A DNA stretch of 64,000 nucleotides from Rickettsiales bacterium (GTDB taxonomy: Bacteria; Pseudomonadota; Alphaproteobacteria; Rs-D84). Shown piece by piece: positions 3,279 to 63,783 of this stretch. Within the stretch, counting starts at the first letter, position 1; every line of letters starts with the position of its first letter. The translations under genes and the position numbers were made by a program. Under the pieces are notes generated by a model. It did no database searches and was not told the DNA's origin. It worked only from the letters and a program-made list of their open reading frames with translations. The stretch covers positions 63,237-127,236 of the forward strand of contig JAITCH010000010.1 of NCBI GenBank assembly GCA_031283185.1. The letters run 5' to 3'.

Positions 3279-3325
3279 AGGACAAGGCTATCAAATTTTA
3301 TAAGTCCGCATCAAAGGATTTTTTA

Positions 3326-3406
3326 CAATTTGAGATTCCCGCCTTCGCGGGAATGACGACACTTCGTGTCGTTTCTAGCGGGTGGGGGTCGGGAGATCCC
3401 CACCCG
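3326..3406. repeat. composite repeat family B copy in inverted orientation (CAATTTGAGATTCCCGCCTTCGCGGGAATGAC ... GCGGGTGGGGGTCGGGAGATCCCCACCCGC)
   Basis: Reverse complement of the family B consensus. Together with 2898-2970 it brackets the GIY-YIG gene. Confidence 0.75.
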
Positions 3407-4926: not shown

Positions 4927-4965
4927 GCCGGAAGGGGTCTCAGAATCCCTTCCGGCATATTTTAT
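4927..4965 (+). terminator. intrinsic terminator-like hairpin GCCGGAAGGGGTCTCAGAATCCCTTCCGGC followed by ATATTTTA
   Basis: A 9-bp GC-rich stem followed by a T-rich tract, read directly from the sequence. Confidence 0.5.
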
Positions 4966-5036: not shown

Positions 5037-5122
5037 GGGGGTGTTGACCCGGACATAAGGTTTTCTGTGGATTTTTATCCTTTGACAAATAATAAAAGTG
5101 GGTGGAAAAGTTATAAAAAGTT

Positions 5123-5249
5123 CTCCTCCATTGGAGGAGTCCCCCACGAAGTGGGGGGAGGTGGTTTAGCCACATTAAGGTAAGTAGTGCGGGGATATTT
5201 GGTTAAACCACCCCGCGCCTACGGCGCACCCCTCCACCGGAGGGGAATT
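5123..5249. repeat. composite structured repeat copy A: hairpin, hairpin, inverted-repeat core GGTGGTTTAGCCAC...GTGGTTAAACCACC, hairpin, hairpin
   Basis: CTCCTCCATTGGAGGAG, TCCCCCACGAAGTGGGGGGA, the core, CGCGCCTACGGCGCA and CCCCTCCACCGGAGGGG. The architecture is the same as the copy at 35317-35454. Confidence 0.8.
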
Positions 5250-5300
5250 GAGCCCTGAAATGGGCGGGATGGAAAACAGACCTTATGGGGTTTGTTCGGT

Positions 5301-7549: not shown

Positions 7550-7723
7550 ATGGCAGTTCCAAAAAAGAAAAAAAGCAAATCTCGTTCCGCGCAGCACAAG
7601 GCGCATAACGCATTGTCTGCGATGCCGGCATCAACCTGCGTGAAATGCGGGGAAAAGAAGCGTCCGCATCATGTATGTGATGCTTGCGGCGCGTATGGCG
7701 AAAAGGCCGTATTGAAGAAATAA
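7550..7723 (+). CDS. rpmF: 50S ribosomal protein L32 (57 aa; shorter than the 60-aa cut-off of the ORF track)
   Basis: MAVPKKKKSKSRSAQHKAHNAL...CVKCGEKKRPHHVCDACGAYG, sitting immediately upstream of plsX as in the conserved cluster. Confidence 0.9.
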   Translation: MAVPKKKKSKSRSAQHKAHNALSAMPASTCVKCGEKKRPHHVCDACGAYGEKAVLKK

Positions 7724-10453: not shown

Positions 10454-10461
10454 AAAATAAG

Positions 10462-10504
10462 ATTCCCCTCCAAGGTGGAGGGGTGCCCGAAGGGCGGGGT
10501 GGTT
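10462..10504. repeat. terminal half-copy of the composite repeat (AATTCCCCTCCAAGGTGGAGGGGTG + GC hairpin + GGGGTGGTT)
   Basis: Matches the ends of the copies at 5123-5249 and 35317-35454. Confidence 0.75.
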
Positions 10505-10529
10505 GAGTTTTGTAGAGAGAGAAAAACTC

Positions 10530-17871: not shown

Positions 17872-17901
17872 AAAAAATCCCCTCTAATAGAGGGGATTTT
17901 T
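17872..17901 (+). terminator. intrinsic terminator CCCCTCTAATAGAGGGG followed by a T-run
   Basis: Hairpin flanked by an A-run and a T-run, directly after rpsU. Confidence 0.7.
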
Positions 17902-18289: not shown

Positions 18290-18330
18290 TAGCGGGAAGG
18301 GATCTCCGAATCCCTTCCCGAACATTTTAA
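18290..18330. terminator. bidirectional terminator hairpin GGGAAGGGATCTCCGAATCCCTTCCC between convergent genes
   Basis: A 10-bp stem located between the 17960..18268 (+) ORF and trpS (-). Confidence 0.55.
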
Positions 18331-24210: not shown

Positions 24211-24239
24211 AAATCCCCTCCAACGGAGGGGATTTTTTT
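24211..24239 (+). terminator. intrinsic terminator TCCCCTCCAACGGAGGGGA followed by T7
   Basis: Hairpin followed by a T-run directly after the 22840..24204 stop. Confidence 0.75.
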
Positions 24240-26389: not shown

Positions 26390-26450
26390 TCCTTGTCCCC
26401 CTTTGTCGCGCCGTAGCAAAGCGAAGGCGGATAATGGGTGGGTAAAATAA

Positions 26451-26482
26451 GTTATTCCGGGGCTTGACCCCGGAATCTTGTC
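26451..26482. repeat. REP/RPE-like 32-bp palindromic element (GTTATTCCGGGGCTTGACCCCGGAATCTTGTC)
   Basis: One of six copies of the GTCATYCCSGGGCTTGACCCSGGRATCTYG family. Confidence 0.8.
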
Positions 26483-26498
26483 ATAATATAATTCCCAT

Positions 26499-29116: not shown

Positions 29117-29194
29117 GCGGGGCGGGGTCTCCTGACCCCGCCCCGCAATCGTCATCCCCGCGAAGGCGCGGATCTCAAATTGTATAATGCAAAT
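29117..29194. repeat. composite repeat, family B: G-rich hairpin GCGGGGCGGGGTCTCCTGACCCCGCCCCGC + GTCATCCCCGCGAAGGCGCGGATCTCAAATTGTATAATGCAAAT
   Basis: Same architecture as the copies at 2898-2970, 3326-3406 (inverted) and 55347-55453. Confidence 0.8.
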
Positions 29195-29257
29195 AAAATT
29201 CCACGCCACCATTGACGGGTGTGATAGGGTAGGGGTAATTTCCCATTAAAAAACCTG

Positions 29258-29296: not shown

Positions 29297-29372
29297 GGGG
29301 TCGTAGCTCAGTTGGTAGAGCGCTACGTTCGCATCGTAGAGGTCGGGCGTTCGAGTCGCCTCGGCTCCACCA
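29297..29372 (+). tRNA. tRNA-Ala (anticodon CGC), CCA encoded
   Basis: A cloverleaf can be folded by hand, with a G3:U70 identity pair. The anticodon loop is TTCGCAT and the T-loop TTCGAGT. Confidence 0.9.
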
Positions 29373-29404
29373 ATTTTTGCCAAACTTCGTTTAGTTGCAA
29401 ATAA

Positions 29405-29478
29405 GGCTCGGTGGCAGAGTGGTTATGCAGAGGACTGCAAATCCTTGTATGCCGGTTCGATTCCGACCCGAGCCTCCA
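29405..29478 (+). tRNA. tRNA-Cys (anticodon GCA), CCA encoded
   Basis: Acceptor stem GGCTCGG/CCGAGCC, anticodon loop CTGCAAA and T-loop TTCGATT. Confidence 0.9.
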
Positions 29479-29599
29479 AATTTCAATATATTATGGCACA
29501 AATCAAGGCCTTACCTGCCGCGCCCGCCTAGGGCGGGGTGGTCGGCAGGCGTATTCGCCCATCCCAAAATAGACAAAATAATAAATTTCACTAAACTAC

Positions 29600-29627
29600 T
29601 TGACAAACGGAGGCAGTGTGCTATATT
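29600..29627 (+). promoter_or_regulatory. promoter TTGACA-N16-TATATT for the sRNA candidate
   Basis: Near-consensus hexamers read from the sequence. Confidence 0.5.
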
Positions 29628-29633
29628 AATGCT

Positions 29634-29834
29634 GTCTGGGGGGAAACTTCCAGCCAGATTCCTTGGGTCACCAGACTCCCTCCTACATTCTCTCTCCTCT
29701 GGCCCCAAGGAACCAAGATTTTGCCGCATTTCATTTACGCGCGGCGCAGAGCTTAAAGCATTCTGTTTCTCCTTTCCTTCCTCCTTCATTTGGAATGCTT
29801 TGGTCCCCCGGATAAAACCGGGGGAAGTTTTTTA
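29634..29834 (+). ncRNA. candidate ~200-nt CU-rich small RNA with its own promoter and intrinsic terminator (CCCCCGG-ATAAAA-CCGGGGG + T6)
   Basis: Delimited by a promoter and a terminator, with no ORF. The pyrimidine-rich tracts CUCCCUCCUAC and CUCCUUUCCUUCCUCCUUC resemble anti-Shine-Dalgarno seed regions. Confidence 0.45.
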
Positions 29835-29837
29835 TCT

Positions 29838-29866
29838 TGCAAACTGATTGTGCTGACATTAATATC
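29838..29866 (+). promoter_or_regulatory. promoter TTGCAA-N17-TAATAT for tRNA-Leu
   Basis: Hexamers lie 14 nt upstream of the tRNA-Leu 5' end. Confidence 0.55.
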
Positions 29867-29880
29867 AATGGGCTTAAATG

Positions 29881-29965
29881 CGGTCGTGGCGAAATTGGTA
29901 GACGCACTACCTTGAGGTGGTAGCGAGTAAAATCATGGGAGTTCAAGTCTCCCCGACCGCACCAA
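29881..29965 (+). tRNA. tRNA-Leu (anticodon GAG), long variable arm, CCA encoded
   Basis: Acceptor stem GCGGTCG/CGACCGC, anticodon loop TTGAGGT and an 85-nt length with an extra arm. Confidence 0.9.
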
Positions 29966-30679: not shown

Positions 30680-32119
30680 ATGAAAAAATACATAACCACG
30701 CCGATTTACTATATGAATGCCGCGCCCCATATTGGCAGCGCATATACCACCGCAATGTGCGATATTTTGCGCCGCGCTTATATCCGCCAAGGGCACGAGG
30801 TTTTCTTTACCAGCGGCAGTGATGAGCACGGCCAGAAAATGCAAGAGGCTGCGGAACGCGCCGGTATGTCATTTACGGAATTTTTGGATAAACAAAGCGC
30901 GCGGTTTAGGGAACTTACGATTGCGCTGAATGCCGCGCCGGATTTCTTTATTCGCACCAGTATGGATCAGCATAAAAAGATTGTCAGCGAATGGCTGGCG
31001 GACGCGCATCAAAAGGGCATTTTGGTAAAGAAAAAGTATAAGGGGCTTTATTGTGTCGGCTGCGAGCAGTTCAAGAAAGAATCAGATTTGATAGAGGGCG
31101 GCCTGTGCCCAGACCACCGCAAAGCACCGGTTGAAATGGAAGAAGAAAATTACTTTTTACCATTAGAGCCGCACCGCGAATGGTTGCGGGAATACATTGC
31201 GAAAAATCCCGAATGGATTCAGCCGGAAAGTTATCGCGCTGAAATTCTTAATATGTTATCAGAGCCGTTGGAGGATTTGTCCATTTCGCGGCCCCGGTCG
31301 CGGGTTGCACTGGGGATTGAATTTCCATTTGACGGGGATCATATAACTTATGTTTGGTATGACGCGCTGATTAATTATGTGTCTTCATTGCGTATAAACA
31401 AGTTTGATGAATTTTGGGCGGGCGCGATTCATGTAATTGGCAAGGACATATTAAAACCGCATTGTATTTTCTGGCCGATAATGTTGCGCGTTATGGGTAT
31501 GCCCCCGGCGCACCGCACATTTATACACGGATTTTGGACGGGCGAGGGCGGAATAAAAATGTCAAAGTCGCTGGGGAATGTAATTGATCCGTTTGAAGTT
31601 ATTGATGAAATCGGCGCGGACGCGTTAAGGTTTTACTTCGCACAGAACGCGGCGATTGCAAGGGATTCGACTATATCGCGGGAGTTGCTGAGAAAGGGCT
31701 ATGAAACCTTGGCGAACAATTTCGGCAATTTGTATCTGCGAACTTTTAAGATGATTGAGAAATATAATGTAGAATTCCCCTCCAAGGCTTGTCGCGCCGA
31801 AACGAAGTGTAGGCGGATGGAGGGGTCGGCGAAGCCGGGGGTGGTTGAGAATCTATCCGACATCCAAACCCTTGCGAATGATATTTTACGGCGCAGTTCG
31901 GAGTTAAATTTGTATATAGATCAGACGCAGCCGTGGGCATTGGCAAAGGACGAGGCGAAGAGGGATGAGTTGGTGCAGGTGCTGCAAACATTGGCGAATG
32001 GGGTTTTGGAATTGGCAGATGCGGTTGCGCCGATTATGCCGGATACTTCGGATAAAATTATTCAGTCATTCAAAACCAAAGAGTCCGTAGTCCTGTTTCC
32101 AAAGTTGGAAGATAAATAA
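30680..32119 (+). CDS. metG: methionyl-tRNA synthetase (short form)
   Basis: HIGH motif PHIGSAYT, zinc knuckles CVGC...CPDH, and KMSKS. Confidence 0.9.
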   Translation: MKKYITTPIYYMNAAPHIGSAYTTAMCDILRRAYIRQGHEVFFTSGSDEHGQKMQEAAERAGMSFTEFLDKQSARFRELTIALNAAPDFFIRTSMDQHKKIVSEWLADAHQKGILVKKKYKGLYCVGCEQFKKESDLIEGGLCPDHRKAPVEMEEENYFLPLEPHREWLREYIAKNPEWIQPESYRAEILNMLSEPLEDLSISRPRSRVALGIEFPFDGDHITYVWYDALINYVSSLRINKFDEFWAGAIHVIGKDILKPHCIFWPIMLRVMGMPPAHRTFIHGFWTGEGGIKMSKSLGNVIDPFEVIDEIGADALRFYFAQNAAIARDSTISRELLRKGYETLANNFGNLYLRTFKMIEKYNVEFPSKACRAETKCRRMEGSAKPGVVENLSDIQTLANDILRRSSELNLYIDQTQPWALAKDEAKRDELVQVLQTLANGVLELADAVAPIMPDTSDKIIQSFKTKESVVLFPKLEDK

Positions 32120-34527: not shown

Positions 34528-35301
34528 TTATTTCAACTCCAAAATCAATGGCGTATGGTCGCTGGAACTTGGGGCGCGGCGCGGGGATAAATCAATCTCA
34601 ATACTCTTCGCCATTGGCGCGGCCGCGCGGTTCAATAAAAAATAATCCAATCGCAATCCGTGTCCTTTTTCCAAACTTCCGCCGCGATAGCCAATCCAAG
34701 TATATCCAACTTCGTCTGGCCCGCGCAAAGCCCGCCAAGCATCCGTCCACCCGGCATCCAACCATTCCTGCATAATGCGCCGCGCCGCCGGGGCGGAAAT
34801 GGACGATCCTTCATAAGCCTTTGGATTCCACACATCAATATCCCGAATTGCAACATTAAAATCACCCACCAATATAGTCGGAAATTCGTCATCCAATAAC
34901 GGCGCGGCGAACTCCGAAAACTTTTTCATCCAATCAATTTTATAAGGAAATTTTGGCGAATCTTCCGCCTCGCCATTCGGCATATATACATTGACCAACC
35001 GCACGCGCCCGTCAATGATGCAGTCAACCATACGGGCATTCGGATCTCCCGGAAAAGTCGGCAGCCCGCGCGAAAAATCCTCTATGCTGAACTTAGAGAA
35101 CACCGCCACGCCGTTGTAAGACTTTTGCCCAAAGACCTTTATGTTATAGCCCAGGTGTTCGAAGATTATATGCGGAAATTGTTCGTCTTGCGCCTTGACT
35201 TCCTGGATCAGAATGACATCCGGGCGGGCGGCCTGCATCCAGTTGATAAAGTTCTCTGCGTGCGCGCGGATAGAGTTTATATTAAAAGTCGCAATTTTCA
35301 T
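34528..35301 (-). CDS. xth: exodeoxyribonuclease III
   Basis: MKIATFNINSIRA...QEVK, the EEP nuclease motifs. The start is chosen at the internal Met. Confidence 0.85.
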   Translation of the reverse strand: MKIATFNINSIRAHAENFINWMQAARPDVILIQEVKAQDEQFPHIIFEHLGYNIKVFGQKSYNGVAVFSKFSIEDFSRGLPTFPGDPNARMVDCIIDGRVRLVNVYMPNGEAEDSPKFPYKIDWMKKFSEFAAPLLDDEFPTILVGDFNVAIRDIDVWNPKAYEGSSISAPAARRIMQEWLDAGWTDAWRALRGPDEVGYTWIGYRGGSLEKGHGLRLDYFLLNRAAAPMAKSIEIDLSPRRAPSSSDHTPLILELK

Positions 35302-35316
35302 TTTTATCATCCATAA

Positions 35317-35454
35317 GTTCCCCTTCATTGAAGGGGTGTCGCCGCAGGCGACGGGGTAGTTTAGCCACATTTTGGCAAGCAGTGCGGTTATATGTGGTTA
35401 AACCACCCCGGCACTTCGTGCCACCCCTCCAACGGAGGGGAATTTTATTTTTAT
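35317..35454. repeat. composite structured repeat copy B (same architecture as 5123-5249, with compensatory stem changes)
   Basis: CCCCTTCATTGAAGGGG, GTCGCCGCAGGCGAC, the core GGGTAGTTTAGCCAC...GTGGTTAAACCACC, GGCACTTCGTGCC and CCCCTCCAACGGAGGGG. Confidence 0.8.
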
Positions 35455-39572: not shown

Positions 39573-39583
39573 TAAAATAAAAT

Positions 39584-39615
39584 GTCATCCCGGGGCTTGA
39601 CCCCGGGATCTTGCC
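39584..39615. repeat. REP/RPE-like element GTCATCCCGGGGCTTGACCCCGGGATCTTGCC, 12 nt after the stop codon
   Basis: Member of the family described at 26451-26482. Confidence 0.8.
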
Positions 39616-39666
39616 TTTAATAACCTTGACATTTTCCCGTCAGCCCTTTATCATCCCAAGACTTAT

Positions 39667-39744
39667 GGCGAATGTAGCTCAGTTGGTTAGAGCGCGGGTT
39701 TGTGGTACCTGAGGTCGCGGGTTCGAGTCCCGTCCTTCGCCCCA
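39667..39744 (+). tRNA. tRNA-His (anticodon GTG) with an encoded G-1, C73 and CCA
   Basis: Anticodon loop TTGTGGT and T-loop TTCGAGT, with an extra 5' G opposite C73. Confidence 0.85.
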
Positions 39745-40519: not shown

Positions 40520-40528
40520 TAAACAAAT

Positions 40529-40560
40529 GTCATCCCGGGGCTTGACCCCGGGATCTTGCC
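40529..40560. repeat. REP/RPE-like element, 10 nt after the rpsD stop
   Basis: Identical to the copy at 39584-39615. Confidence 0.8.
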
Positions 40561-40575
40561 TATAAGAGGTCTCCG

Positions 40576-44673: not shown

Positions 44674-44747
44674 TGGTTGGGGCAACTGGATTCGAACCAA
44701 TATAGTCAGAATCAGAATCTGAAGTCCTACCATTAGACGATGCCCCA
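44674..44747 (-). tRNA. tRNA-Gln (anticodon CTG), CCA encoded
   Basis: The reverse complement folds as tRNA. It has a U1:A72 pair like E. coli tRNA-Gln, anticodon loop TTCTGAT and T-loop TTCGAAT. Confidence 0.85.
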
Positions 44748-47217: not shown

Positions 47218-47402
47218 TGATTTATAAGATAATATATGAATTTGGCTCGGTTGGGAGTCAGGAGCTTGACTTCGATGATGATCATTCAACTATGAGTATT
47301 GTCGGGCAGCAAATGCCATTTGATCCCGGGGATTTCCAGGACGCGGCGCGCTACTTCGGTAGAGATATTATGTCAAGCTTGATACAACAACGAATGAGAT
47401 AA
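47218..47402 (+). CDS. small acidic hypothetical protein (61 aa)
   Basis: An AAGGAATG RBS precedes the ATG. Confidence 0.4.
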
Positions 47403-47490
47403 CGGAAATCGGTTTGGGTGTGCGGGGGCTTTTGTGCCCCCGCCCTTTTTTTATTTGACATTCAATTGATTCCATTACAAGGTATGGCGC

Positions 47491-47544
47491 AAATTCTCCT
47501 CCTGTGGAGGAGTCCGGGCGAAGCCCGGGAGGTGGGTCTACCAT
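47491..47544. repeat. 5'-half copy of the composite repeat (subfamily with GGTGGGTCTACC core), directly upstream of the DUF559 gene
   Basis: AAATTCTCCTCCTGTGGAGGAGTCCGGGCGAAGCCCGGGAGGTGGGTCTACCAT, identical over 56 bp to 48002-48057. Confidence 0.8.
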
Positions 47545-47564
47545 TAATCCTTGGGCAACAAACA

Positions 47565-47978
47565 ATGTCAATAGTTATTCAATACAATCCAAATCTTCGC
47601 AACAATGCAAAAGCATTACGCAAGGCGGGTATATTATCCGAAATCCTTCTATGGGATCAGATAAAGCGAGGTCAAATAAATGGTCTTGATTTTGACCGAC
47701 AACGAATCATGGGAAATTATATAGTGGATTTCTGCTGCCCAGATACAGGTGTAGTTATAGAGATTGACGGACATTCGCATGACTTTAAGGAACTGCACGA
47801 TACCAAGCGTGAGGAATATCTAAAAAGCCTGGGTCTTGAAACTATACATATCGCGGATATTGATGTTAAGCAAAGTTTAGATGGTGTTGTTGGAATGTTA
47901 AAGGCGCATCCATTTTTGCAAAATCCAATTAAAGATAGAAAATGTGTTTTTATACATAATTCTCCTCTTGTGAATTAG
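47565..47978 (+). CDS. DUF559-family endonuclease-like protein (Vsr/restriction-endonuclease-like fold)
   Basis: ...GNYIVDFCCPDTGVVIEIDGHSHD...EYLKSLGLETIH, the typical DUF559 pattern. Confidence 0.65.
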   Translation: MSIVIQYNPNLRNNAKALRKAGILSEILLWDQIKRGQINGLDFDRQRIMGNYIVDFCCPDTGVVIEIDGHSHDFKELHDTKREEYLKSLGLETIHIADIDVKQSLDGVVGMLKAHPFLQNPIKDRKCVFIHNSPLVN

Positions 47979-48001
47979 GATTTGGTAGTGTGGCACTGAC
48001 T

Positions 48002-48128
48002 AAATTCTCCTCCTGTGGAGGAGTCCGGGCGAAGCCCGGGAGGTGGGTCTACCATATCTATGAAACGCAAGCCTAACCCGGAGACCCACCCCGTCCGCTT
48101 CGCGTCCACCCCTCCACCGGAGGGGAAT
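48002..48128. repeat. full composite repeat copy (GGTGGGTCT...AGACCCACC core subfamily), immediately downstream of the DUF559 gene
   Basis: Its 5' half is identical to 47491-47544. The 3' half ends CCCCTCCACCGGAGGGGAATT, as in the other copies. Confidence 0.8.
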
Positions 48129-48247
48129 TGGGCCCCGGAACGAGTTGGATTTCAAGTGGCAACGCAGAAATCTTAAGAGTTCCAGGCGAACATCCCTCAA
48201 CATCCACCCGCTCCATAACCCCCTCGCGCGCCACAATAACTTTCCGC

Positions 48248-48275
48248 TTGACAAAACTAATTAATGGGGTATAAT
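48248..48275 (+). promoter_or_regulatory. promoter TTGACA-N16-TATAAT
   Basis: Near-consensus hexamers. The -10 overlaps the ATG proposed in the ORF track, so the start is moved to 48307. Confidence 0.5.
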
Positions 48276-55346: not shown

Positions 55347-55453
55347 GGCGGGTGGGGGTCTCCCGACCCCCACCCGAACATTTTACAAAAATTGCTTTTG
55401 CAATTTTTGTCATTCCCGCGAAGGCGGGAATCTCAGATTGTAAAATGCAAAAT
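55347..55453. repeat. composite repeat family B copy: GGGTGGGGGTCTCCCGACCCCCACCC hairpin, a 10-bp-arm palindrome spacer, and GTCATTCCCGCGAAGGCGGGAATCTCAGATTGTAAAATGCAAAAT
   Basis: Matches 2898-2970, 3326-3406 and 29117-29194. The repeat supplies the ATG/5' region of the downstream OMP gene. Confidence 0.8.
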
Positions 55454-56167
55454 AAAAAGAAACAAATGAAAAAACTATTAACAATTTTCACTATCGCCAC
55501 ATTATCCACTCTGTCGGCACACGCAGAACGCGCATTTACTACCGACCCATTTGATCCATTGTGGCTGGGGCTGAAAGGTGTGGTGCTGGCGGAAACTGGC
55601 GCGGATATTTATAAATCAACGATCAGCGTGCCTGTGCGCGCCCAGTGGTCTGTGGTGGATGATTTTGCAATTGAAGTAGATGTGAATGGCCAGGCGGACT
55701 TCAACAATCCGAATAGCGGCGTGTCGAATCTTGGCCTTAACGCATATTATAGAATTTCCGAAGGCAAAATGATATTTGATATGGTTGGCGGATTCCGGCT
55801 TGGACGGGAAAATAGTCGTGTTGCGATGTATCGGGACGACATATATACTTTTGGTATGCGTATAGGAACTGTTCGGAACAAGATAACGCTTTCTATGGAT
55901 GTTCTAACGAATTGGGCGTTTAACGGGAATTATAGTTATGCTCAGTTAAACTTGGTTCCGAATGTGTATATTCGCCTAGACGAAGATTGGAAATTAGGCG
56001 CTTATGCGGATGTCAAAAAGGACACATATAATACTGGGCAGGAAGAGGTTCGCATAGGTGTTTTGGCGGTGAAACAATATGGCGCGACAAGTTATATGGG
56101 CGGCGCGGGATATGCTGTGAACGAGGCGAGTATTTACCTCCAAGCCCGCCTAGCCGTCCTGTTTTAA
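55442..56167 (+). CDS. outer-membrane beta-barrel protein (start 55442 or 55463)
   Basis: Signal peptide MKKLLTIFTIATLSTLSAHA, and a C-terminal ...LAVLF. Confidence 0.5.
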   Translation, partial: KMQNKKKQMKKLLTIFTIATLSTLSAHAERAFTTDPFDPLWLGLKGVVLAETGADIYKSTISVPVRAQWSVVDDFAIEVDVNGQADFNNPNSGVSNLGLNAYYRISEGKMIFDMVGGFRLGRENSRVAMYRDDIYTFGMRIGTVRNKITLSMDVLTNWAFNGNYSYAQLNLVPNVYIRLDEDWKLGAYADVKKDTYNTGQEEVRIGVLAVKQYGATSYMGGAGYAVNEASIYLQARLAVLF

Positions 56168-56185: not shown

Positions 56186-56785
56186 ATGGCAATAAAGAAA
56201 AAGAAATCATCAGCAAAAAAGTCCCCATCAAAGGTCGTGCACTCAAAAGTCCCCTTCGCTGGCGAAGGGGTGGCGGGCTTTGCCCGCCGGGGTAGTGGTA
56301 ATAATCTGTCAGCCGAATCGACCGGGTTTGTCCGTTTCGGGGACGCGCTGAACAACTTCTTCCGCGGATATTTTGATTGTTATGGCACGGCGACCCGCGC
56401 AGAATTTTGGTGGCCGGTTTTGGCTGTGGTTTTATTGGTGGGTTTGCCGTGGGCATTGCCAGGATTTATTTTGGCGATTATGGTTCCGTTTGTAATGGTT
56501 ACGATTCGCCGTATGCACGACATTGGGAAATCTGGCTGGCATTATTACGGAATTGAAATTGGCTTTTTCGCGCTGTATCAAGTATTGACTGCGATTGCGA
56601 CTAGCCTTGCGGATAAAGAGATGCGCCTGATAGGCGATCCGGAAGAATTGCACGAAGTTATTGTTCATACGGGGCTTAGCGGCTTTATTGATGCGTTTGC
56701 GCTTGTTATGATGTTGGTAGTCAGCGCATATCTGATTTCATTATTGATCCGCCCATCTCTTCTAACCGGCAATAAGTATCGCTAA
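56186..56785 (+). CDS. DUF805-family inner membrane protein
   Basis: RRMHDIGKSGWHYY motif and TM helices. Confidence 0.6.
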   Translation: MAIKKKKSSAKKSPSKVVHSKVPFAGEGVAGFARRGSGNNLSAESTGFVRFGDALNNFFRGYFDCYGTATRAEFWWPVLAVVLLVGLPWALPGFILAIMVPFVMVTIRRMHDIGKSGWHYYGIEIGFFALYQVLTAIATSLADKEMRLIGDPEELHEVIVHTGLSGFIDAFALVMMLVVSAYLISLLIRPSLLTGNKYR

Positions 56786-56792
56786 GCCGATG

Positions 56793-56822
56793 CCGGGCGG
56801 GGTCTCCGAACCCCGCCCGGAA
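56793..56822. repeat. solo G-rich hairpin of repeat family B (CCGGGCGGGGTCTCCGAACCCCGCCCGG); may also serve as a terminator
   Basis: Same GGGGTCTCC-N-ACCCC design as the hairpins at 29117, 3378 and 55347. Confidence 0.6.
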
Positions 56823-56841
56823 CCATTTCCTCACCTTATTA

Positions 56842-58392
56842 TTACGCTCCGAACTTACCCCTATTAATCGATCTGTATGTCAATGCCTCGGCAATATCTT
56901 CCATAATGATATTTTCTGCGCCACGCAAATCTGCAATCGTCCGTGCGATTCGTAATACGCGATTGTATCCGCGCGCTGACAGCGACATTTTTTCCGCCGC
57001 TAAATTTATAAAGTCGCGCAACTCTTGCGTCAATGCGGTGGCGGTTTCCAACTCGCGCCCGTCCAGCCGGGCATTCAGAATTTCGCGCCCGAAAAGTTTC
57101 ACGCTTCGCGCGATCTGCCGTTCCCGCGCGGCGCAGGTGCGTGCCCGAATCGCTGCGGATGTTTCCTCGGGCGCGCTTTCTGTCCGCCCCAGTTCCCAAG
57201 GGTTCACCGAATCAACTTCAACATGCAAATCGATTCGATCCATTAGTGGTCCTGAAATTTTATTTTGATACGCCTCGGCACAGCGCGGTGCCTTGGAGCA
57301 CGATAATTTTGCATTCCCCAGGTGTCCGCACGGGCAGGGATTCATTGCCGCAATAAGTTGAAATTGCGCGGGGTATGTTGCATTGCGTTTCGCGCGCGAA
57401 ATGGTAATGCCGCCGGTTTCCATTGGCTGCCGTAAAATCTCTAATGCGCCGCGCTGAAATTCGGGCAGTTCGTCCAAAAATAACACGCCATTGTGCGCCA
57501 AAGAAATCTCGCCGGGCAGCGCGTTGGAACCGCCGCCGGACAGCGCGATTTGACTTGCGGTGTGGTGGACGGCGCGGAACGGACGGGCATTCATCAACCC
57601 GCCGCCTTTGAGGAGCCCCGCGACAGAATAGATGACCGAAGTATCTAAAACCTCGCGTTGCGTCATCGGCGGCAATATAGAGCCGAGGCGCGATGCGAGC
57701 ATTGATTTACCCGCGCCCGGAGGGCCGACCATTAACATTGCGTGCCCGCCTGCCGCGGCGATTTCCAATGCCCGTTTTGCTGCCGCTTGCCCCTTTACTT
57801 CGGACATATCTGCCGAATCAGTTCCCCTCCGGTGGAGGGGTGCCGCCAAAGGCGGCGGGGTGGTCTCGGGCGCAGGCATTGGTTCATTATGTCTAAACCA
57901 ATTCACCAAATCCAAAACATTTCCGGCGGCCAGGATATTTTTATTTCCCGCCCACTTGGCCTCGTCCATATTGTCAACGGGGCAAATGATGCCCAACCCT
58001 TGGTCGTTTGCCCAAATACTGGCGGGCAGGACGCCATTTGCCCGCAGGATTGTGCCGTCAAGGCCGACTTCGCCCATAATGACATATTTTGCCAGTTCTT
58101 CTTCTGGCAATACGCCCATCGCGGCGAGAACGGCGCATAGAATCGGCAGGTCAAAGTGCGCACCGGTCTTGGTCAGGTCGGCGGGCGCAAGGTTCACTAC
58201 GACTTTCTTTGCGGGTATGGACAGGTTCATTGCCTTGAAGGCGGATTCAATGCGGGTGGATGCTTCTTTGACGGCGCGGTCGGCGAGCCCAACGATGAAG
58301 AATTTAACCATTCCGTGGGATATTTGCGCCTGTGCTTCGACGCGGGTTATTTCCAGTCCATTAAAAACGATAGTATTTATATTCGCCGTCAT
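56842..58392 (-). CDS. comM: YifB/ComM-family Mg-chelatase-like AAA+ ATPase, carrying an in-frame half-repeat insertion in the inter-domain linker
   Basis: Lon-like N-terminal domain, Walker A GPPGAGKS, and a C-terminal ChlI-like domain. The repeat at 57821-57864 encodes PETTPPPLAAPLHRRG. Confidence 0.9.
   Translation of the reverse strand: MTANINTIVFNGLEITRVEAQAQISHGMVKFFIVGLADRAVKEASTRIESAFKAMNLSIPAKKVVVNLAPADLTKTGAHFDLPILCAVLAAMGVLPEEELAKYVIMGEVGLDGTILRANGVLPASIWANDQGLGIICPVDNMDEAKWAGNKNILAAGNVLDLVNWFRHNEPMPAPETTPPPLAAPLHRRGTDSADMSEVKGQAAAKRALEIAAAGGHAMLMVGPPGAGKSMLASRLGSILPPMTQREVLDTSVIYSVAGLLKGGGLMNARPFRAVHHTASQIALSGGGSNALPGEISLAHNGVLFLDELPEFQRGALEILRQPMETGGITISRAKRNATYPAQFQLIAAMNPCPCGHLGNAKLSCSKAPRCAEAYQNKISGPLMDRIDLHVEVDSVNPWELGRTESAPEETSAAIRARTCAARERQIARSVKLFGREILNARLDGRELETATALTQELRDFINLAAEKMSLSARGYNRVLRIARTIADLRGAENIIMEDIAEALTYRSINRGKFGA
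57821..57864. repeat. terminal half-copy of the composite repeat, inserted in-frame within comM
   Basis: GTTCCCCTCCGGTGGAGGGGTG-CCGCCAAAGGCGGC-GGGGTGGTCT on the plus strand. It is read through on the minus strand. Confidence 0.8.
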
Positions 58393-58423
58393 TTCTCTTT
58401 CCTTTTATACCCTGCCCCCTTGA

Positions 58424-58444
58424 GGGGCGGGGGAGGGGTGGGGG
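58424..58444 (+). promoter_or_regulatory. G-quadruplex-type motif GGGGCGGGGGAGGGGTGGGGG between divergent genes (comM and 58514..60010)
   Basis: Four G-tracts of at least 4 nt separated by single nucleotides, read directly from the sequence. Confidence 0.4.
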
Positions 58445-58513: not shown

Positions 58514-60010
58514 ATGCAAAAATTTATATTTGGAAGTTTGGCGGTTCTGTTCAGTGCATCTGCTGCGTCTGCGAATACATATTATAATCCTGGGAATGTG
58601 GGTCAGTATAACCAAGGTGGATTTATAGGGCAGGGTAATGCCAGTCAGCAGTATCAACCTCGCGGCGGCGGTTATCAGGGAAATTATCAAGGCGGTGGCT
58701 ATCAGGGTGGCGGCTATCAGCCGCAACAGAATCAGCAATTTCGTCCTTATGGACAGGGCGCGCCCGGCGCGTATGGCCAGCAGAATCGCGGATACGGATA
58801 TGGTCAACAGGGGCAGCAGTCTCGCGGACAGAAACCGCAGGCGAGCAAGGCGTTCGAGTTTGATGTGTTTGCGGGATATGAGGGCGCAGATTTTGGATTC
58901 AATATGAATAGTGCTGGGTCAGAGATTAGCTTTAATAATATCACTTGGCAAAAGATTGGCGCGGCGGGCAAGGGGACATTTGACTTGGGCGGCACGGCTG
59001 TGGAGATAAAGGGCGGATTGGAACTTGGCACGCAGGGCAAGTCCGGCACCGTTACGGACGATGATATGCAGAATGGAGGAATATGGAGTGGCTTTGTATA
59101 TTTCTCAAATGGCGCGCAAGATCCTTCGCTTTTGAATTGGTCTAGTCTGGGCGGCGATAACGAATGGGTCAATTTTGGATCCACAGAATTGGCGTATGGC
59201 GTGGGCGAGCAGGGCAAAGGAAGTTCTCTTGGATTTTTTGCATCTGTTGGTCTGGCGAATGGTTGGACATTGGCGGATAATATAACTTTAAAGCCATCGG
59301 TTGGTTATAGATATGAAAGTTATAAATTGATTGGACAGAATGTTATAACGACATCGGTTCTTGCAATTTTGGGCGAAGGATATGACGAGCAGGGTGTTCC
59401 ATATATGATGGGGGATTTGCAGGCGGTTGCTGATTTCTGTGGGAACGCGTCAAATGCTTGTGATGTTATGGTTGTTTTTGATAAGGATGACATACCTCAT
59501 TTTGTCGGATTTGTTATGGGGCTAGACGATTATGACGAGCCGTGGTTTTTAACTTTGGCTTCGGCGCACGCATTGGATGGCATTACGCATAAGTATGATG
59601 TTGTTTGGGCGGGACCATTTATCGCAGCGGACATAGAGGCGAAGTTGATGCCAAAGATGACGGCGAATATGCGGATTGAAATAGGTTTCCCTGGATATTC
59701 GTCCGAGGCGGATCAGCCGTTCCGTAGTGATTTGGCGCATCCAGTGGCGTTTAGGGATTCTGCGGGAATGTTCAGCGGGATGCATTATGGGTTGATGTTG
59801 GGCTATACGGCGGCGATTACGGACGGGATGTCGGTTGGGTTAGATTGGAAATGGGATTATTATGAAGTTAAGGGTGCGGCGAGCGAGAGTTTCTATGCGC
59901 GTGGTTATCCTGCATATGAGGAACATGGTCCAAGCTTTAAGATTGATAATGAAGTGAATGCCCGGTATAAGCAGTCTGGCCTCCGCGCCACCCTCAAAAT
60001 GAAATTCTAA
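58514..60010 (+). CDS. outer-membrane protein with an N-terminal Q/G/Y-rich low-complexity region (GGYQG repeats)
   Basis: Signal peptide and a ~90-aa QGY-rich region, followed by a predicted beta-barrel ending ...LKMKF. Confidence 0.55.
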   Translation: MQKFIFGSLAVLFSASAASANTYYNPGNVGQYNQGGFIGQGNASQQYQPRGGGYQGNYQGGGYQGGGYQPQQNQQFRPYGQGAPGAYGQQNRGYGYGQQGQQSRGQKPQASKAFEFDVFAGYEGADFGFNMNSAGSEISFNNITWQKIGAAGKGTFDLGGTAVEIKGGLELGTQGKSGTVTDDDMQNGGIWSGFVYFSNGAQDPSLLNWSSLGGDNEWVNFGSTELAYGVGEQGKGSSLGFFASVGLANGWTLADNITLKPSVGYRYESYKLIGQNVITTSVLAILGEGYDEQGVPYMMGDLQAVADFCGNASNACDVMVVFDKDDIPHFVGFVMGLDDYDEPWFLTLASAHALDGITHKYDVVWAGPFIAADIEAKLMPKMTANMRIEIGFPGYSSEADQPFRSDLAHPVAFRDSAGMFSGMHYGLMLGYTAAITDGMSVGLDWKWDYYEVKGAASESFYARGYPAYEEHGPSFKIDNEVNARYKQSGLRATLKMKF

Positions 60011-60014
60011 TTAA

Positions 60015-60044
60015 AATCCCCCTCCATTGGAGGGGAATTTTCTT
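60015..60044 (+). terminator. intrinsic terminator CCCCCTCCATTGGAGGGG followed by a T-rich tract
   Basis: Hairpin directly after the stop. Confidence 0.65.
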
Positions 60045-60101: not shown

Positions 60102-60746
60102 ATGAAGTTCAAGTTATATATTATTATATTATGTGCATTTTTTGCAACTCCAACACTCGGGGCATCAGAACTTTCAGCCTCTCGCCAGGTTGAAATAACC
60201 GCGGCAAATTCGGTGGATGCAAAGAATCGCGCTGTGAATGATGCGCGCCAATCGTTGGTCAAAGAATTACTGCGCCGTAGTTCGTCTTCGGATGCCTCGC
60301 GGACAGAGGCCGCGCTGGAACGCCTGACCGATTCGGAAACTTCGGCACTTGTGCGATCGATGAGCATAGAGAACGAAAAGCGGTCGTCAAAGTCGTATGC
60401 GGCAAAGATAACGATAAATTTGGATGCCGAGGCGATGGCAGATTGGTTCGAGAATAGGAACTTGTCGTTTGCGCCGATTTTAGACGCGCAGGTTGGCTGG
60501 ATGCCGGTTTATGTAAATGTGCCTAATGGGCTGAACCAGTGGATATGGTTTAATGCCAAGTTAAGGGATGCCAAGGTTCAGAATCGCGGGGGGTTTCAAG
60601 TATTGCAGATTGGCGGCGGTGTTATTTCCGGCCGGATTTCATCTGATAACGCGCATAAGTTTGCAAGTAATGTTCGTTCCATTGGCGCGAATGTTCAGAA
60701 TGGCGGCACCCTTCGCATTTCATTACCACACGAATCAATGCAATAA
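60102..60746 (+). CDS. hypothetical secreted protein (214 aa)
   Basis: Signal peptide MKFKLYIIILCAFFATPTLGA. Confidence 0.45.
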   Translation: MKFKLYIIILCAFFATPTLGASELSASRQVEITAANSVDAKNRAVNDARQSLVKELLRRSSSSDASRTEAALERLTDSETSALVRSMSIENEKRSSKSYAAKITINLDAEAMADWFENRNLSFAPILDAQVGWMPVYVNVPNGLNQWIWFNAKLRDAKVQNRGGFQVLQIGGGVISGRISSDNAHKFASNVRSIGANVQNGGTLRISLPHESMQ

Positions 60747-60747
60747 T

Positions 60748-60779
60748 GTCATTCCGGGGCTTGACCCCGGAATCTTGCC
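60748..60779. repeat. REP/RPE-like element, 2 nt after the stop codon
   Basis: GTCATTCCGGGGCTTGACCCCGGAATCTTGCC. Confidence 0.8.
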
Positions 60780-60941
60780 TTTTTCACTTGCATTTTGCTT
60801 AAAATATCTATAAAATACTCCAACATTCTTCGGAATGAAATAAACAGGCTAGGTTTTAGGTAGTCTTCACGATTGCCTTCCAGTGCCCCGATGGGGTTCC
60901 CGACCAGCCGAAGTCCAACTGGTAAAACAAAAGGAAAAAAG

Positions 60942-61805: not shown

Positions 61806-61812
61806 TTAATAA

Positions 61813-61844
61813 GTCATCCCCCGGCTTGACCGGGGGATCTCGGC
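61813..61844. repeat. REP/RPE-like element (GTCATCCCCCGGCTTGACCGGGGGATCTCGGC) between rpsB and tsf
   Basis: A family member with compensatory stem changes. Confidence 0.8.
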
Positions 61845-61863
61845 AAAATTAAAGGAATCTAAA

Positions 61864-63030: not shown

Positions 63031-63783
63031 ATGCTTACCGAAAAAGAACATCGTATAAAGGGCTCTGGCGAGTTAAACGAAATGTTTAACGCGCTAAGCC
63101 GGACTGCGACTGGAATCCAGCGCGACTTTGGCGAAATTGAAAGCCTGCAAAGTTCTATTAAGGGCGCGGCGGATTTCGTGGCCAAGGCGATAGAACGGGT
63201 CGAGGCGATGATATTGTCGGACTTGCAGTTAATTCGTCCGCAGGCTGGTATTACGACCACGAACGAATTCCGCGAAGGCGATGGTGTGGACGAATTTGTG
63301 TTGGGATTTTCCGGCGCGGGAAATTTCGTGCGCGGGAATCCGCATTTTGCGATTTCTTTGGCACTTAAACACGAAGGCGAAACTGCGATTGGCTTGATTT
63401 ATTCGCCGATTGACGACAGATTGTATTTCGCGGAAAAGGGCAATGGCGCATTTATATTCGCTCCGTTTCATAGTCAACGGATGCGCGCTTCAACCCGCAC
63501 CGAACCTACTGACCTTACAATTTATAAGTCATTCCCCGGCTTGACCGGGGAATCTCGGCCGCTAATATCGCAAATCCCAACCTCCAACCTTCGCATTTCC
63601 GGCTGCCCTGCGCTTGACCTGGCATATGTTGCATCGGGCAAGGCGGACATTGCGATTTTGGCGAATGACGGCATTTCCGAAATCTGTGCTGGTCAGTTAT
63701 TGGTCGAAGAGGCGAATGGCTTTGTTGATTTCACCAACGGCGACATCCTTGCGGCATCTCTTTCCATAAAATCCTTTATATAA
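63031..63783 (+). CDS. inositol monophosphatase (SuhB/IMPase)-family protein with a degenerate metal-binding motif and an in-frame REP-like insertion
   Basis: C-terminal ALDLAYVASGKAD and central PHFAISLAL match the IMPase fold. However, the DPIDGT motif is replaced by GFSGAG, and the repeat at 63528-63560 encodes SFPGLTGESRP. Confidence 0.6.
   Translation: MLTEKEHRIKGSGELNEMFNALSRTATGIQRDFGEIESLQSSIKGAADFVAKAIERVEAMILSDLQLIRPQAGITTTNEFREGDGVDEFVLGFSGAGNFVRGNPHFAISLALKHEGETAIGLIYSPIDDRLYFAEKGNGAFIFAPFHSQRMRASTRTEPTDLTIYKSFPGLTGESRPLISQIPTSNLRISGCPALDLAYVASGKADIAILANDGISEICAGQLLVEEANGFVDFTNGDILAASLSIKSFI
63528..63560. repeat. REP/RPE-like element inserted in-frame within the IMPase-family gene
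   Basis: GTCATTCCCCGGCTTGACCGGGGAATCTCGGCC. Confidence 0.8.

Follow-up and report, generated by a model that had tools for sequence, protein, structure and literature searches.

How does a conserved gene come to carry a hairpin repeat within its reading frame, and where does such a repeat come from? The question is raised by comM (yifB), on the minus strand of a 64,000-nt stretch of a Rickettsiales genome (assembly GCA_031283185.1, contig JAITCH010000010.1, positions 63,237 to 127,236). This stretch is called the window here, and coordinates are counted from its first letter. Part of the linker between the N-domain and the AAA+ domain of ComM is specified by a 45-nt module with two hairpins. 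An earlier reading, made from the letters without database searches (the sequence-only reading), had described it as half of a composite repeat. Weighing all the evidence jointly, we consider it probable that the segment is the solo terminal arm of a small selfish element with a DUF559 nuclease gene, that it entered comM after the lineage split from its known relatives, and that it is carried as a tolerated passenger.

The Module Within comM

The gene and the parts of the module are as follows.

56842-58392, minus strand: comM/yifB, 516 aa, intact; Walker A at residue 223, Walker B at residue 304
57820-57864, plus strand: comM module, a solo two-hairpin arm; covariance-model match 57819-57867, 60.4 bits, E 3e-17
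57824-57840, plus strand: hairpin 1, CCCCTCC-GGT-GGAGGGG, 7 bp, the conserved core of the family
57842-57856, plus strand: hairpin 2, GCCGCC-AAA-GGCGGC; the stem sequence varies among copies, with pairing kept
57857-57864, plus strand: 3′ box GGGGTGGT, nearly invariant in the 90-sequence alignment

The Pfam domains ChlI (residues 22-141, E 3e-32), Mg_chelatase/AAA+ (195-397, E 2e-92) and Mg_chelatase_C (410-507, E 5e-25) identify the gene as that of ComM/YifB. The domain set of the family is thus complete, and the Walker A (GPPGAGKS) and Walker B (LFLDE) motifs are intact. The best match among solved structures is ComM itself (8rxd, E 1e-111), and a protein named 'YifB family Mg chelatase-like AAA ATPase' in a Rickettsiales metagenome-assembled genome (MAG) matches the window protein at 100% identity.

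Direct reading shows that the 45 nt of the module are exactly codons 177-191 (TTPPPLAAPLHRRGT), in phase with the codon boundaries. The minus-strand translation runs through ...PMPAPETTPPPLAAPLHRRGTDSADMSEVKGQAAAKRALEIAAAGG... (in longer context, ...PMPAPETTPPPLAAPLHRRGTDSADMSEVKGQ...) with no stop, and the 516-aa frame is preserved. Three proposals of the sequence-only reading are therefore upheld: a terminal arm of a repeat family lies inside comM, as the covariance-model score attests; it is read in frame; and its peptide falls between the N-domain and the AAA+ domain, as the Pfam boundaries place it. The string quoted in that reading is present at 57821-57866, whereas the conserved module is 57820-57864; the 44-nt coordinates, the 46-nt string and the 16-aa peptide (offset by two residues) given there are slightly inconsistent with one another. 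At the module the local GC content spikes to 0.73 and the GC skew is reversed. In an AlphaFold2 model of ComM built with 42 homologs, itself only fair in quality, residues 169-202 are predicted as coil, with a predicted local distance difference test score (pLDDT) below 50 at residues 181-191.

Is the segment an insertion? An alignment of 60 ComM homologs shows that the stretch from '...NHF..xP' to 'DMSE' is hypervariable in both sequence and length in every lineage. A peptide of the module type was found in the linker of none of the 119 other homologs retrieved; nor did the covariance model detect an arm when applied, at the DNA level, to comM of the three nearest relatives (L001, L003 and L005). 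The residues are thus an insertion relative to relatives, as had been proposed, and the opposite outcome, the same residues in repeat-free genomes, was not encountered. The further claim that 16 aa had been added has to be revised. The linker is 21 aa long here and 15-17 aa in the closest relatives, a net gain of 4-6 aa, and the residues of native type left outside the module are only 'AP' and 'DSA' (about five). A gain this small means that the arm replaced host linker sequence (about 10 native codons) rather than being purely added to it.

The Repeat Family in the Window

The arm consists of AATT, hairpin 1 (CCCCTCC-N3-GGAGGGG), TG, a variable hairpin 2 and the box GGGGTGGT. The 17-nt hairpin core CCCCTCCGGTGGAGGGG occurs three times exactly, and seven times when up to two mismatches are allowed, in the window, and not at all in shuffled sequence. 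A covariance model was built from 90 aligned arms, mostly from other phyla. In hairpin 2, 101 double-sided changes were counted where shuffles gave 32, and sliding the partner columns destroys the pairing, as expected of a stem maintained by compensation. Hairpin 1 and the 3′ box were fixed by the search pattern, and their invariance is uninformative; the 5′ ATT is conserved though it lay outside the pattern.

The model finds 14 full arms in the window: three inverted pairs, one arm before a gene and seven solo arms. The comM copy ranks third by score among the 14, and both its stems are perfect. The three pairs form copies of about 130 nt with inverted arms, which together with the density of arms gives the family the character of a miniature inverted-repeat transposable element (MITE). 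The copies other than that in comM and the arm before the gene are these.

5118-5250: full composite copy, arms 5118-5168 (plus) and 5204-5250 (minus), intergenic
35315-35445: full composite copy, arms 35315-35363 (plus) and 35399-35445 (minus), just upstream of the true xthA start
48002-48130: full composite (MITE-like) copy, module 48002-48050 (plus), spacer, inverted module 48082-48130
31772-31848, plus strand: metG module with an enlarged hairpin-1 loop, 41.4 bits; in open reading frame (ORF) 30680-32119, read as EFPSKACRAETKCRRMEGSAKPGVV
56246-56299, plus strand: module in a DUF805 gene, 41.2 bits; in ORF 56186-56785, in a Lys-rich N-terminal tail, read as VPFAGEGVAGFARRGSG
10460-10506, plus strand: solo module, intergenic, 55.9 bits
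43421-43471, plus strand: solo module, intergenic between convergent ORFs, 54.8 bits
44794-44845, plus strand: solo module, intergenic beside a tRNA gene, 39.4 bits
62978-63027, plus strand: solo module, intergenic, 49.2 bits

The arm at 35315-35363 was considered as a further intragenic copy (ORF 34528-35370) and rejected, the true xthA start (MKIATFNINSIR) being downstream of the copy. Searches of Rfam returned only tRNAs at gathering score in the whole window, and nothing relevant with E up to 10 over 47400-48250, which holds four modules.

The DUF559 Gene and Its Arms Across Phyla

One arm of the window stands before a gene.

47491-47539, plus strand: left arm of the gene-bearing copy, 39.7 bits, 25 nt before the ATG of the DUF559 gene
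47565-47978, plus strand: DUF559 gene (nuclease of the Vsr-type PD-(D/E)XK fold), 137 aa; Pfam DUF559 E 1e-24; PDB 3HRL E 4e-15

The cassette at 47491-48130 thus runs from the upstream arm through the DUF559 gene to the composite copy, the first 54 nt of which are identical to 47491-47544. The encoded protein has homologs at 50-67% identity in many phyla. It matches only DUF559 in Pfam, with a weak NCBIfam 'DUF559' match; PADLOC gave nothing meaningful for it, and no NUMOD or helix-turn-helix (HTH) targeting region was found in its 137 aa.

The module is not confined to this genome, and the notion of a local repeat family has to be given up: it is pan-bacterial and flanks an endonuclease gene. 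A scan with the exact pattern, one genome per species, found it in at least 118 loci. The taxa listed are Cyanobacteria, Bacteroidota, Firmicutes, Fibrobacterota, Chlorobi, Planctomycetes, Spirochaetes, Armatimonadetes and the Alpha-, Beta-, Gamma- and Deltaproteobacteria. Carriers include cultured bacteria (Flavobacterium, Chryseobacterium, Pedobacter, Serratia microhaemolytica, Advenella and Oscillatoria) and the closed chromosome of 'Ca. Haliotispira'. Among viral contigs only 14 have the module, and no plasmid was found to carry a close DUF559 homolog.

Sixteen of these (at least 118) loci, among those listed, contain a DUF559 homolog, never more than 191 nt away from an arm; fifteen of the homologs are 47-63% identical to the window protein, and the one in L075 is 28% identical. 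By model matches in the listed loci, the closest arm upstream of the gene points the same way as the gene in 14 of 16 cases, and the closest one downstream is inverted in 11 of 12. The ends of the proteins tell the same story: a module-encoded peptide (...NHPALxGTPPxEGN) makes up part of the last 25 residues in 62 of the 120 closest DUF559 homologs and is found at the N-terminus in 17 of the 120. Proximity, orientation and these peptides identify the family as one in which structured terminal inverted repeats enclose a DUF559 gene; it also includes solo arms and MITE-like copies that lack the gene.

We did not find a hairpin-flanked DUF559 element described in the open-access literature, and provisionally regard it as undescribed. 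DUF559 has been grouped with Vsr and I-Bth0305I (PMC3424549). DUF559 proteins are enriched among predicted targets of programmed inversion (odds ratio 14.3), where they are listed, with no comment, alongside methylases of restriction-modification (R-M) systems, and proteins named 'endonuclease domain-containing' have an odds ratio of 9.6 (PMC9881135, Table 1). Inverted arms could be the cause of the DUF559 enrichment.

Many of the arm-bearing MAGs of different phyla share a sample type, and the isolate labels suggest the guts of termites and other animals (loci L008-L011, L018, L031, L044, L059, L075, L083 and L094 are among those concerned). The contig of one ComM relative (L006) has an identifier of the Ga01233xx series, as have several arm-bearing MAG contigs. 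The shared sample type and identifier series may hint at spread within one community.

Arms Inside Genes

Residence in a reading frame is recurrent in this family. Three of the 14 window arms lie in coding sequence (comM, metG and the DUF805 gene), and a fourth case is known from queA of the nearest relative. As far as behavior goes, the likeness to Rickettsia palindromic elements (RPEs) that the sequence-only reading drew holds. Among the loci listed from other phyla, 42 of 132 arms are inside open frames of at least 150 codons, compared with 71% of random positions; coding sequence is thus under-represented yet commonly used. Hosts verified by Pfam are HsdR, HsdM, MnmE and a type III methylase.

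Single arms are read through in queA, mnmE, hsdM and metG. Entire cassettes, lacking start and stop codons of their own, are in frame in type I hsdR and in type II/III methylase genes; in HsdR the frame runs through the whole arm-DUF559-arm unit, which lies between HSDR_N and the SWI2/SNF2 domain. The loci concerned belong to MAGs of Bacteroidales (L124), Cloacimonadales (L033) and Flavobacteriaceae (L079 and L022), along with L011 and L017. At one equivalent site L011 has the cassette and L017 only a gene-less copy. MnmE of an uncultured proteobacterium (RUG14746, L123), a tRNA-modification GTPase and thus one more housekeeping host, has two arm-derived peptides, FPHLGGTDHAVAGGV and FPSHGGVAQSDGVV.

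Two of the window cases deserve a closer look. The arm in the methionyl-tRNA synthetase gene metG is read as EFPSK...MEGSAKPGVV, and the loop of its hairpin 1 is enlarged by about 30 nt. The observation concerns the window and L125 (3001-4404): the DNA of the closest relatives, ATG GAA TTG TCG GCA AAG ACC GCG, resembles the same arm minus hairpin 1. The metG arm may be an old shared insertion that is decaying in the relatives, or the resemblance may reflect microhomology at the target site. The arm in the DUF805 gene, which encodes a membrane protein, is about 550 nt from comM. DUF805 homologs align with the protein only from residue ~44 on, yet they carry similar tails and one shares the MAIKK start, which argues that the start codon is genuine.

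The genic arms occur in both orientations and several frames and give differing peptides: the arm is antisense in comM, and sense in metG, the DUF805 gene and queA. Occurrence in both orientations relative to the host gene argues for an element acting at the DNA level over an RNA signal. Each of the six frames is free of stops in 80-97% of 159 unique arms, and the arm length is divisible by three in 79 of the 159, against 53 expected; the copies cannot be treated as independent, and part of both figures is due to selection on genic copies.

Junctions and a Model of Spread

Filled and empty states of the same site are available at three junctions: queA (L001 filled, L005 and L003 empty) and two type III methylase sites (L079 vs. 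L022). In queA of L001 (arm 7606-7651) the protein is 340 aa long, against 329-330 aa in the two other relatives, and reads LLES-SPPVEGCPQGRGGLSA-FSGTT where the empty form reads LLES-SGGKP-FSGTT. At each of the three junctions the arm replaces 6-18 nt of host DNA. Such replacement fits what is seen in comM, which on balance has gained far fewer than 15 codons. Opposite the AATT or AGTT of the arm, each empty site reads A(A/G/T)(C/T)T. The queA empty site AGCTCTGGTGGA has, in addition, GGTGGA at the place of the GGTGGT of the arm, and its AGC TCT GGT GGA resembles the two ends of the arm joined together. The AATT ends could belong to the inverted repeat or be a duplicated target. From these three junctions, the pattern looks more like break-and-repair or microhomology-assisted copying than clean cut-and-paste.

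These observations suggest a model. The complete element is the DUF559 (Vsr-fold) nuclease gene between two inverted modules of about 45 nt. The nuclease would mobilize the arms, either by homing-like break and repair or by hairpin-directed transposition. Since Vsr-fold nucleases include proven homing endonucleases and DUF559 is classed with them, nuclease-driven spread is adopted as a working model. An arm would have entered the comM linker after the split from the known relatives, displacing about 10 native codons, in what appears to be a recent and neutral event. It would persist there because it is exactly 15 codons long, has no stop in the frame used, and gives a coil rich in Pro, Ala, Gly and Arg at a place where every ComM is hypervariable and without fixed structure. 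In all likelihood ComM tolerates the arm as a passenger and has not adopted it as an adaptation.

Several points weigh against this account. Mobility driven by the nuclease is hypothetical, and the translation of the comM segment is presumed from the intact frame. The nearest ComM relatives are distant (75-77% identity in protein and 69-72% in DNA outside the linker), and a protein search found none above 77%. A scan of metagenome contigs showed neither an empty-site comM allele (flanks 15-45 nt apart) nor the filled one (46-76 nt apart), although the pattern does recognize the window itself; these contigs lack the present organism, and their negative carries no information. With the nearest relative only 77% identical and no empty-site allele, the age of the insertion and the exact ancestral linker are beyond reconstruction. 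The junctions are untidy, with no convincing target-site duplication at solo copies, at full copies or at the three junctions above. Solo arms may arise from independent mobility or by deletion of a full copy. The cross-phylum census (the at least 118 loci) rests on an exact-core pattern and is biased to intact copies. The metG copy partly aligns with the sequence of relatives, hence some in-frame copies may be old. Finally, the ComM structure model is mediocre as a whole (mean pLDDT 71.8, with low confidence also at 271-349), which reduces the low linker scores to weak, supporting evidence.

Other Explanations of the comM Segment

The passenger view has to be set against the thought that the arm was put to use. 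A longer, Pro-rich, flexible linker might benefit hexamer assembly or domain movement of ComM; the copy is fully intact within the coding sequence, comM is otherwise conserved, and the length of the linker varies among ComMs and may matter. Such exaptation seems unlikely to us. The net change is within the normal range of the ComM family, and intact hairpins are what a young neutral insertion should have. Moreover, the same module is found in unrelated proteins, in other frames and both orientations, with other peptides as the result, which argues for tolerance independent of sequence. The use might instead be regulatory, the arm terminating or attenuating transcription within comM, pausing its translation, offering a site to an RNase, or acting as a bypass element like the 50-nt gap of T4 gene 60. 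Two stable hairpins are indeed predicted in the comM mRNA (-30.4 kcal/mol), stems like hairpin 1 with T-runs are found at gene ends elsewhere in the window (24215 and 60019), and a homing-endonuclease cassette with a hairpin bypass insert provides a precedent (bioRxiv 10.1101/2022.08.31.505936). We find regulation rather improbable all the same: the fold reaches a z-score of only -1.8, neither strand has a terminator-like or promoter-like site at the comM arm, there is no arrangement of take-off and landing codons with a stop, and the family occurs in both orientations inside genes. No bypass is needed, since the segment is in frame and stop-free.

The remaining alternatives deny the insertion itself. 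An ancient, vertically inherited linker could be convergent with the repeats or even their source. The data scanned contain no empty-site allele of this comM, the linker is too variable for its ancestry to be traced, and the metG copy may be old. It is very improbable nevertheless: the segment matches over its full length, at E 3e-17, a model drawn largely from other phyla, its hairpin 2 is compensatory, its composition spikes, and the module is absent from the 119 other ComMs. The module also flanks DUF559 genes in unrelated bacteria, and comM therefore cannot be its origin. Assembly or binning might also have produced the segment, by wrongly joining a short repeat to the comM contig: the genome is a MAG with many hairpin repeats at which assemblies break, and the Logan contig of this region ends at repeats on both sides of comM. 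That contig (L127, 1,635 nt), the product of an independent assembler, is base-identical over window positions 56794-58428, that is, the whole of comM with the insert, which excludes an assembler artefact. The 45-nt insert is, besides, shorter than typical assembly k-mers, and it consists of exactly 15 codons, in phase, within one continuous conserved ORF. A mis-join is, to our mind, scarcely credible.

Relation to Known Elements

Among known systems, the RPEs come first to mind. As summarized in a review (Ogata et al., 2000, 2002, in PMC10969869), these palindromic repeats are found repeatedly in frame in unrelated housekeeping genes; the unit is about 150 bp (100-150 bp when defined more widely) and confined to Rickettsia, and each family encodes one conserved peptide, of some 30-50 aa. 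The arm resembles RPEs, so described, in being in frame and stop-free in unrelated genes, in giving a short peptide at permissive surface or linker positions and in leaving the host gene intact; the host here is also affiliated to Rickettsiales. It differs in its unit of 45 nt or 15 aa (130 nt in a full copy), in peptides that vary with frame and orientation, and in its presence in many phyla with ties to a DUF559 nuclease gene. The two are set apart here by length and range, not by sequence. The sequence-only reading had thought such behavior unusual outside the RPEs. In-frame repeat insertions are documented well beyond Rickettsia, and in-frame MITE/ORF fusions are called 'not unusual' in the same 2024 review (PMC10969869), which makes the claim of rarity overstated. 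MITEs such as ERIC, BOX, QMITE1 of Coxiella, the Anabaena MITEs and the Correia elements are likewise small, non-coding, multi-copy elements with terminal inverted repeats that are occasionally fused in frame (PMC10969869). In the present family, by contrast, no convincing target-site duplication was seen, solo arms are common, the distribution crosses phyla, and what the shared ends enclose is a gene for a Vsr-fold nuclease, a protein not recognized as a transposase.

The nearest architectural analogue of the DUF559-arm element is the REPtron, the pair formed by repetitive extragenic palindromes (REPs) and REP-associated tyrosine transposases (RAYTs). REPs are palindromes of 20-40 nt with a GTAG or CGTC head (PMC3733652). 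Both systems have dispersed short hairpins, a variable stem that keeps its pairing, and one small gene flanked by inverted copies. REPs, however, are extragenic and flank the gene of a RAYT transposase (IS200/IS605-like, Y1 HUH), whereas here the head is AATT or AGTT, two hairpins extend over 45 nt, the gene is DUF559, and a fifth to a third of the copies are in coding sequence.

Mobile endonuclease genes offer another comparison. The EDxHD/Vsr-like I-Bth0305I family consists of proven homing endonucleases (PMC3239194), and the partner gene here has the Vsr-type PD-(D/E)XK fold by its Pfam (DUF559) and PDB (3HRL) matches. The ShiLan HNH element is an endonuclease inserted in frame with neither intron nor intein (PMC11855218), and T4 mobA with its bypass cassette is an endonuclease inside an ORF (bioRxiv 10.1101/2022.08.31.505936). 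As in these cases, where the insert is read through or bypassed, the cassettes here can lie inside an ORF with no intron or intein; in hsdR and methylase genes the whole unit is read through. But those elements are site-specific in one host gene, mostly of phages, and lack hairpin terminal repeats and dispersed solo arms; the present cassettes are found in intergenic DNA and in several host genes, and encode a predicted nuclease. Inteins, too, are selfish in-frame insertions in host proteins, sometimes with an endonuclease. Unlike them, the insert in comM is only 15 aa, Pfam detects neither a Hint domain nor an intein family in ComM, HsdR, MnmE or the methylase hosts, and the peptide of the comM module would stay in the mature protein.

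Significance of the comM Arm

Taken by itself, the comM insertion is probably ordinary: a neutral, in-frame insertion of a repeat into a permissive linker, a known phenomenon. Its interest lies in the identity of the repeat, the arm of a cross-phylum DUF559 cassette that habitually resides in reading frames. A larger proposal, which we put forward as a speculation and rate as possible though doubtful, is that the module and the DUF559 nuclease form an undescribed pan-bacterial class of selfish element that colonizes genes with neither intron nor intein and is simply translated. Its arms, open in essentially every frame and enriched in lengths divisible by three, would encode peptides that form coil. 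The nuclease would recognize the arms or a target like their joined ends (A-R-Y-T...GGTGG) and copy arms and cassettes into new sites. If this is true, a system still active would be at work across phyla, continually reshaping the loops and linkers of R-M and housekeeping proteins, with the comM arm as one of its fresh footprints, and DUF559 would have its first defined biological role.

The association has several consequences. It links the very common DUF559 domain to a specific structured DNA partner and a selfish-element lifestyle. It also supplies a biochemical hypothesis, namely that a DUF559 nuclease acts on a defined 45-nt two-hairpin substrate. Besides introns and inteins, it shows a further route by which endonuclease cassettes and their remnants can persist in genes, those of R-M systems included. 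The arms are also a recurrent source of Pro/Gly/Arg-rich insertions in loops and linkers of bacterial proteins in several phyla, which matters for annotation, for the calling of domain boundaries and for studies of protein evolution.

Other Repeats and Neighboring Features

Short palindromic repeats are unusually abundant in this genome. Those to the left and right of comM fragment short-read assemblies; the ends of the Logan contig L127 (56794 and 58428) fall exactly at hairpin or G-rich repeats that flank the gene. The ORF adjoining comM (58514-60010) matches Pfam 'Pom' (Protochlamydia outer membrane protein, E 3e-7), and its N-terminal region is of low complexity, rich in Gly, Gln and Tyr.

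Another hairpin family, GTCATTCCCGCGAAGGCGGGAATCTCAAATTG, has an ATTCCC-N8-GGGAAT core and occurs at 2936-2983, 3321-3364, 29151-29198 and 55409-55456; we take the form of its core to be that of the neisserial dRS3 repeat. Two further hairpin families, GTCATCCCGGGGCTTGACCCCGGGATCTTGCC and GCCGGAAGGGGTCTCnGAATCCCTTCCGGC, occupy two sets of sites.

First set: 26447-26487, 39580-39620, 40525-40565, 60744-60784, 61809-61849, 63524-63564
Second set: 4927-4964, 18292-18329, 55348-55385, 56792-56829

Single CCCCTCC...GGAGGGG hairpins between A- and T-runs stand at gene ends at 17875-17901, 24211-24237 and 60015-60041. In form they are like ordinary intrinsic terminators, and the arm could be related to them or derived from them. 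The window also holds a cluster of three tRNA genes (29297-29961) and single tRNA genes at 39668-39741 and 44677-44747, the last adjoining a solo arm.

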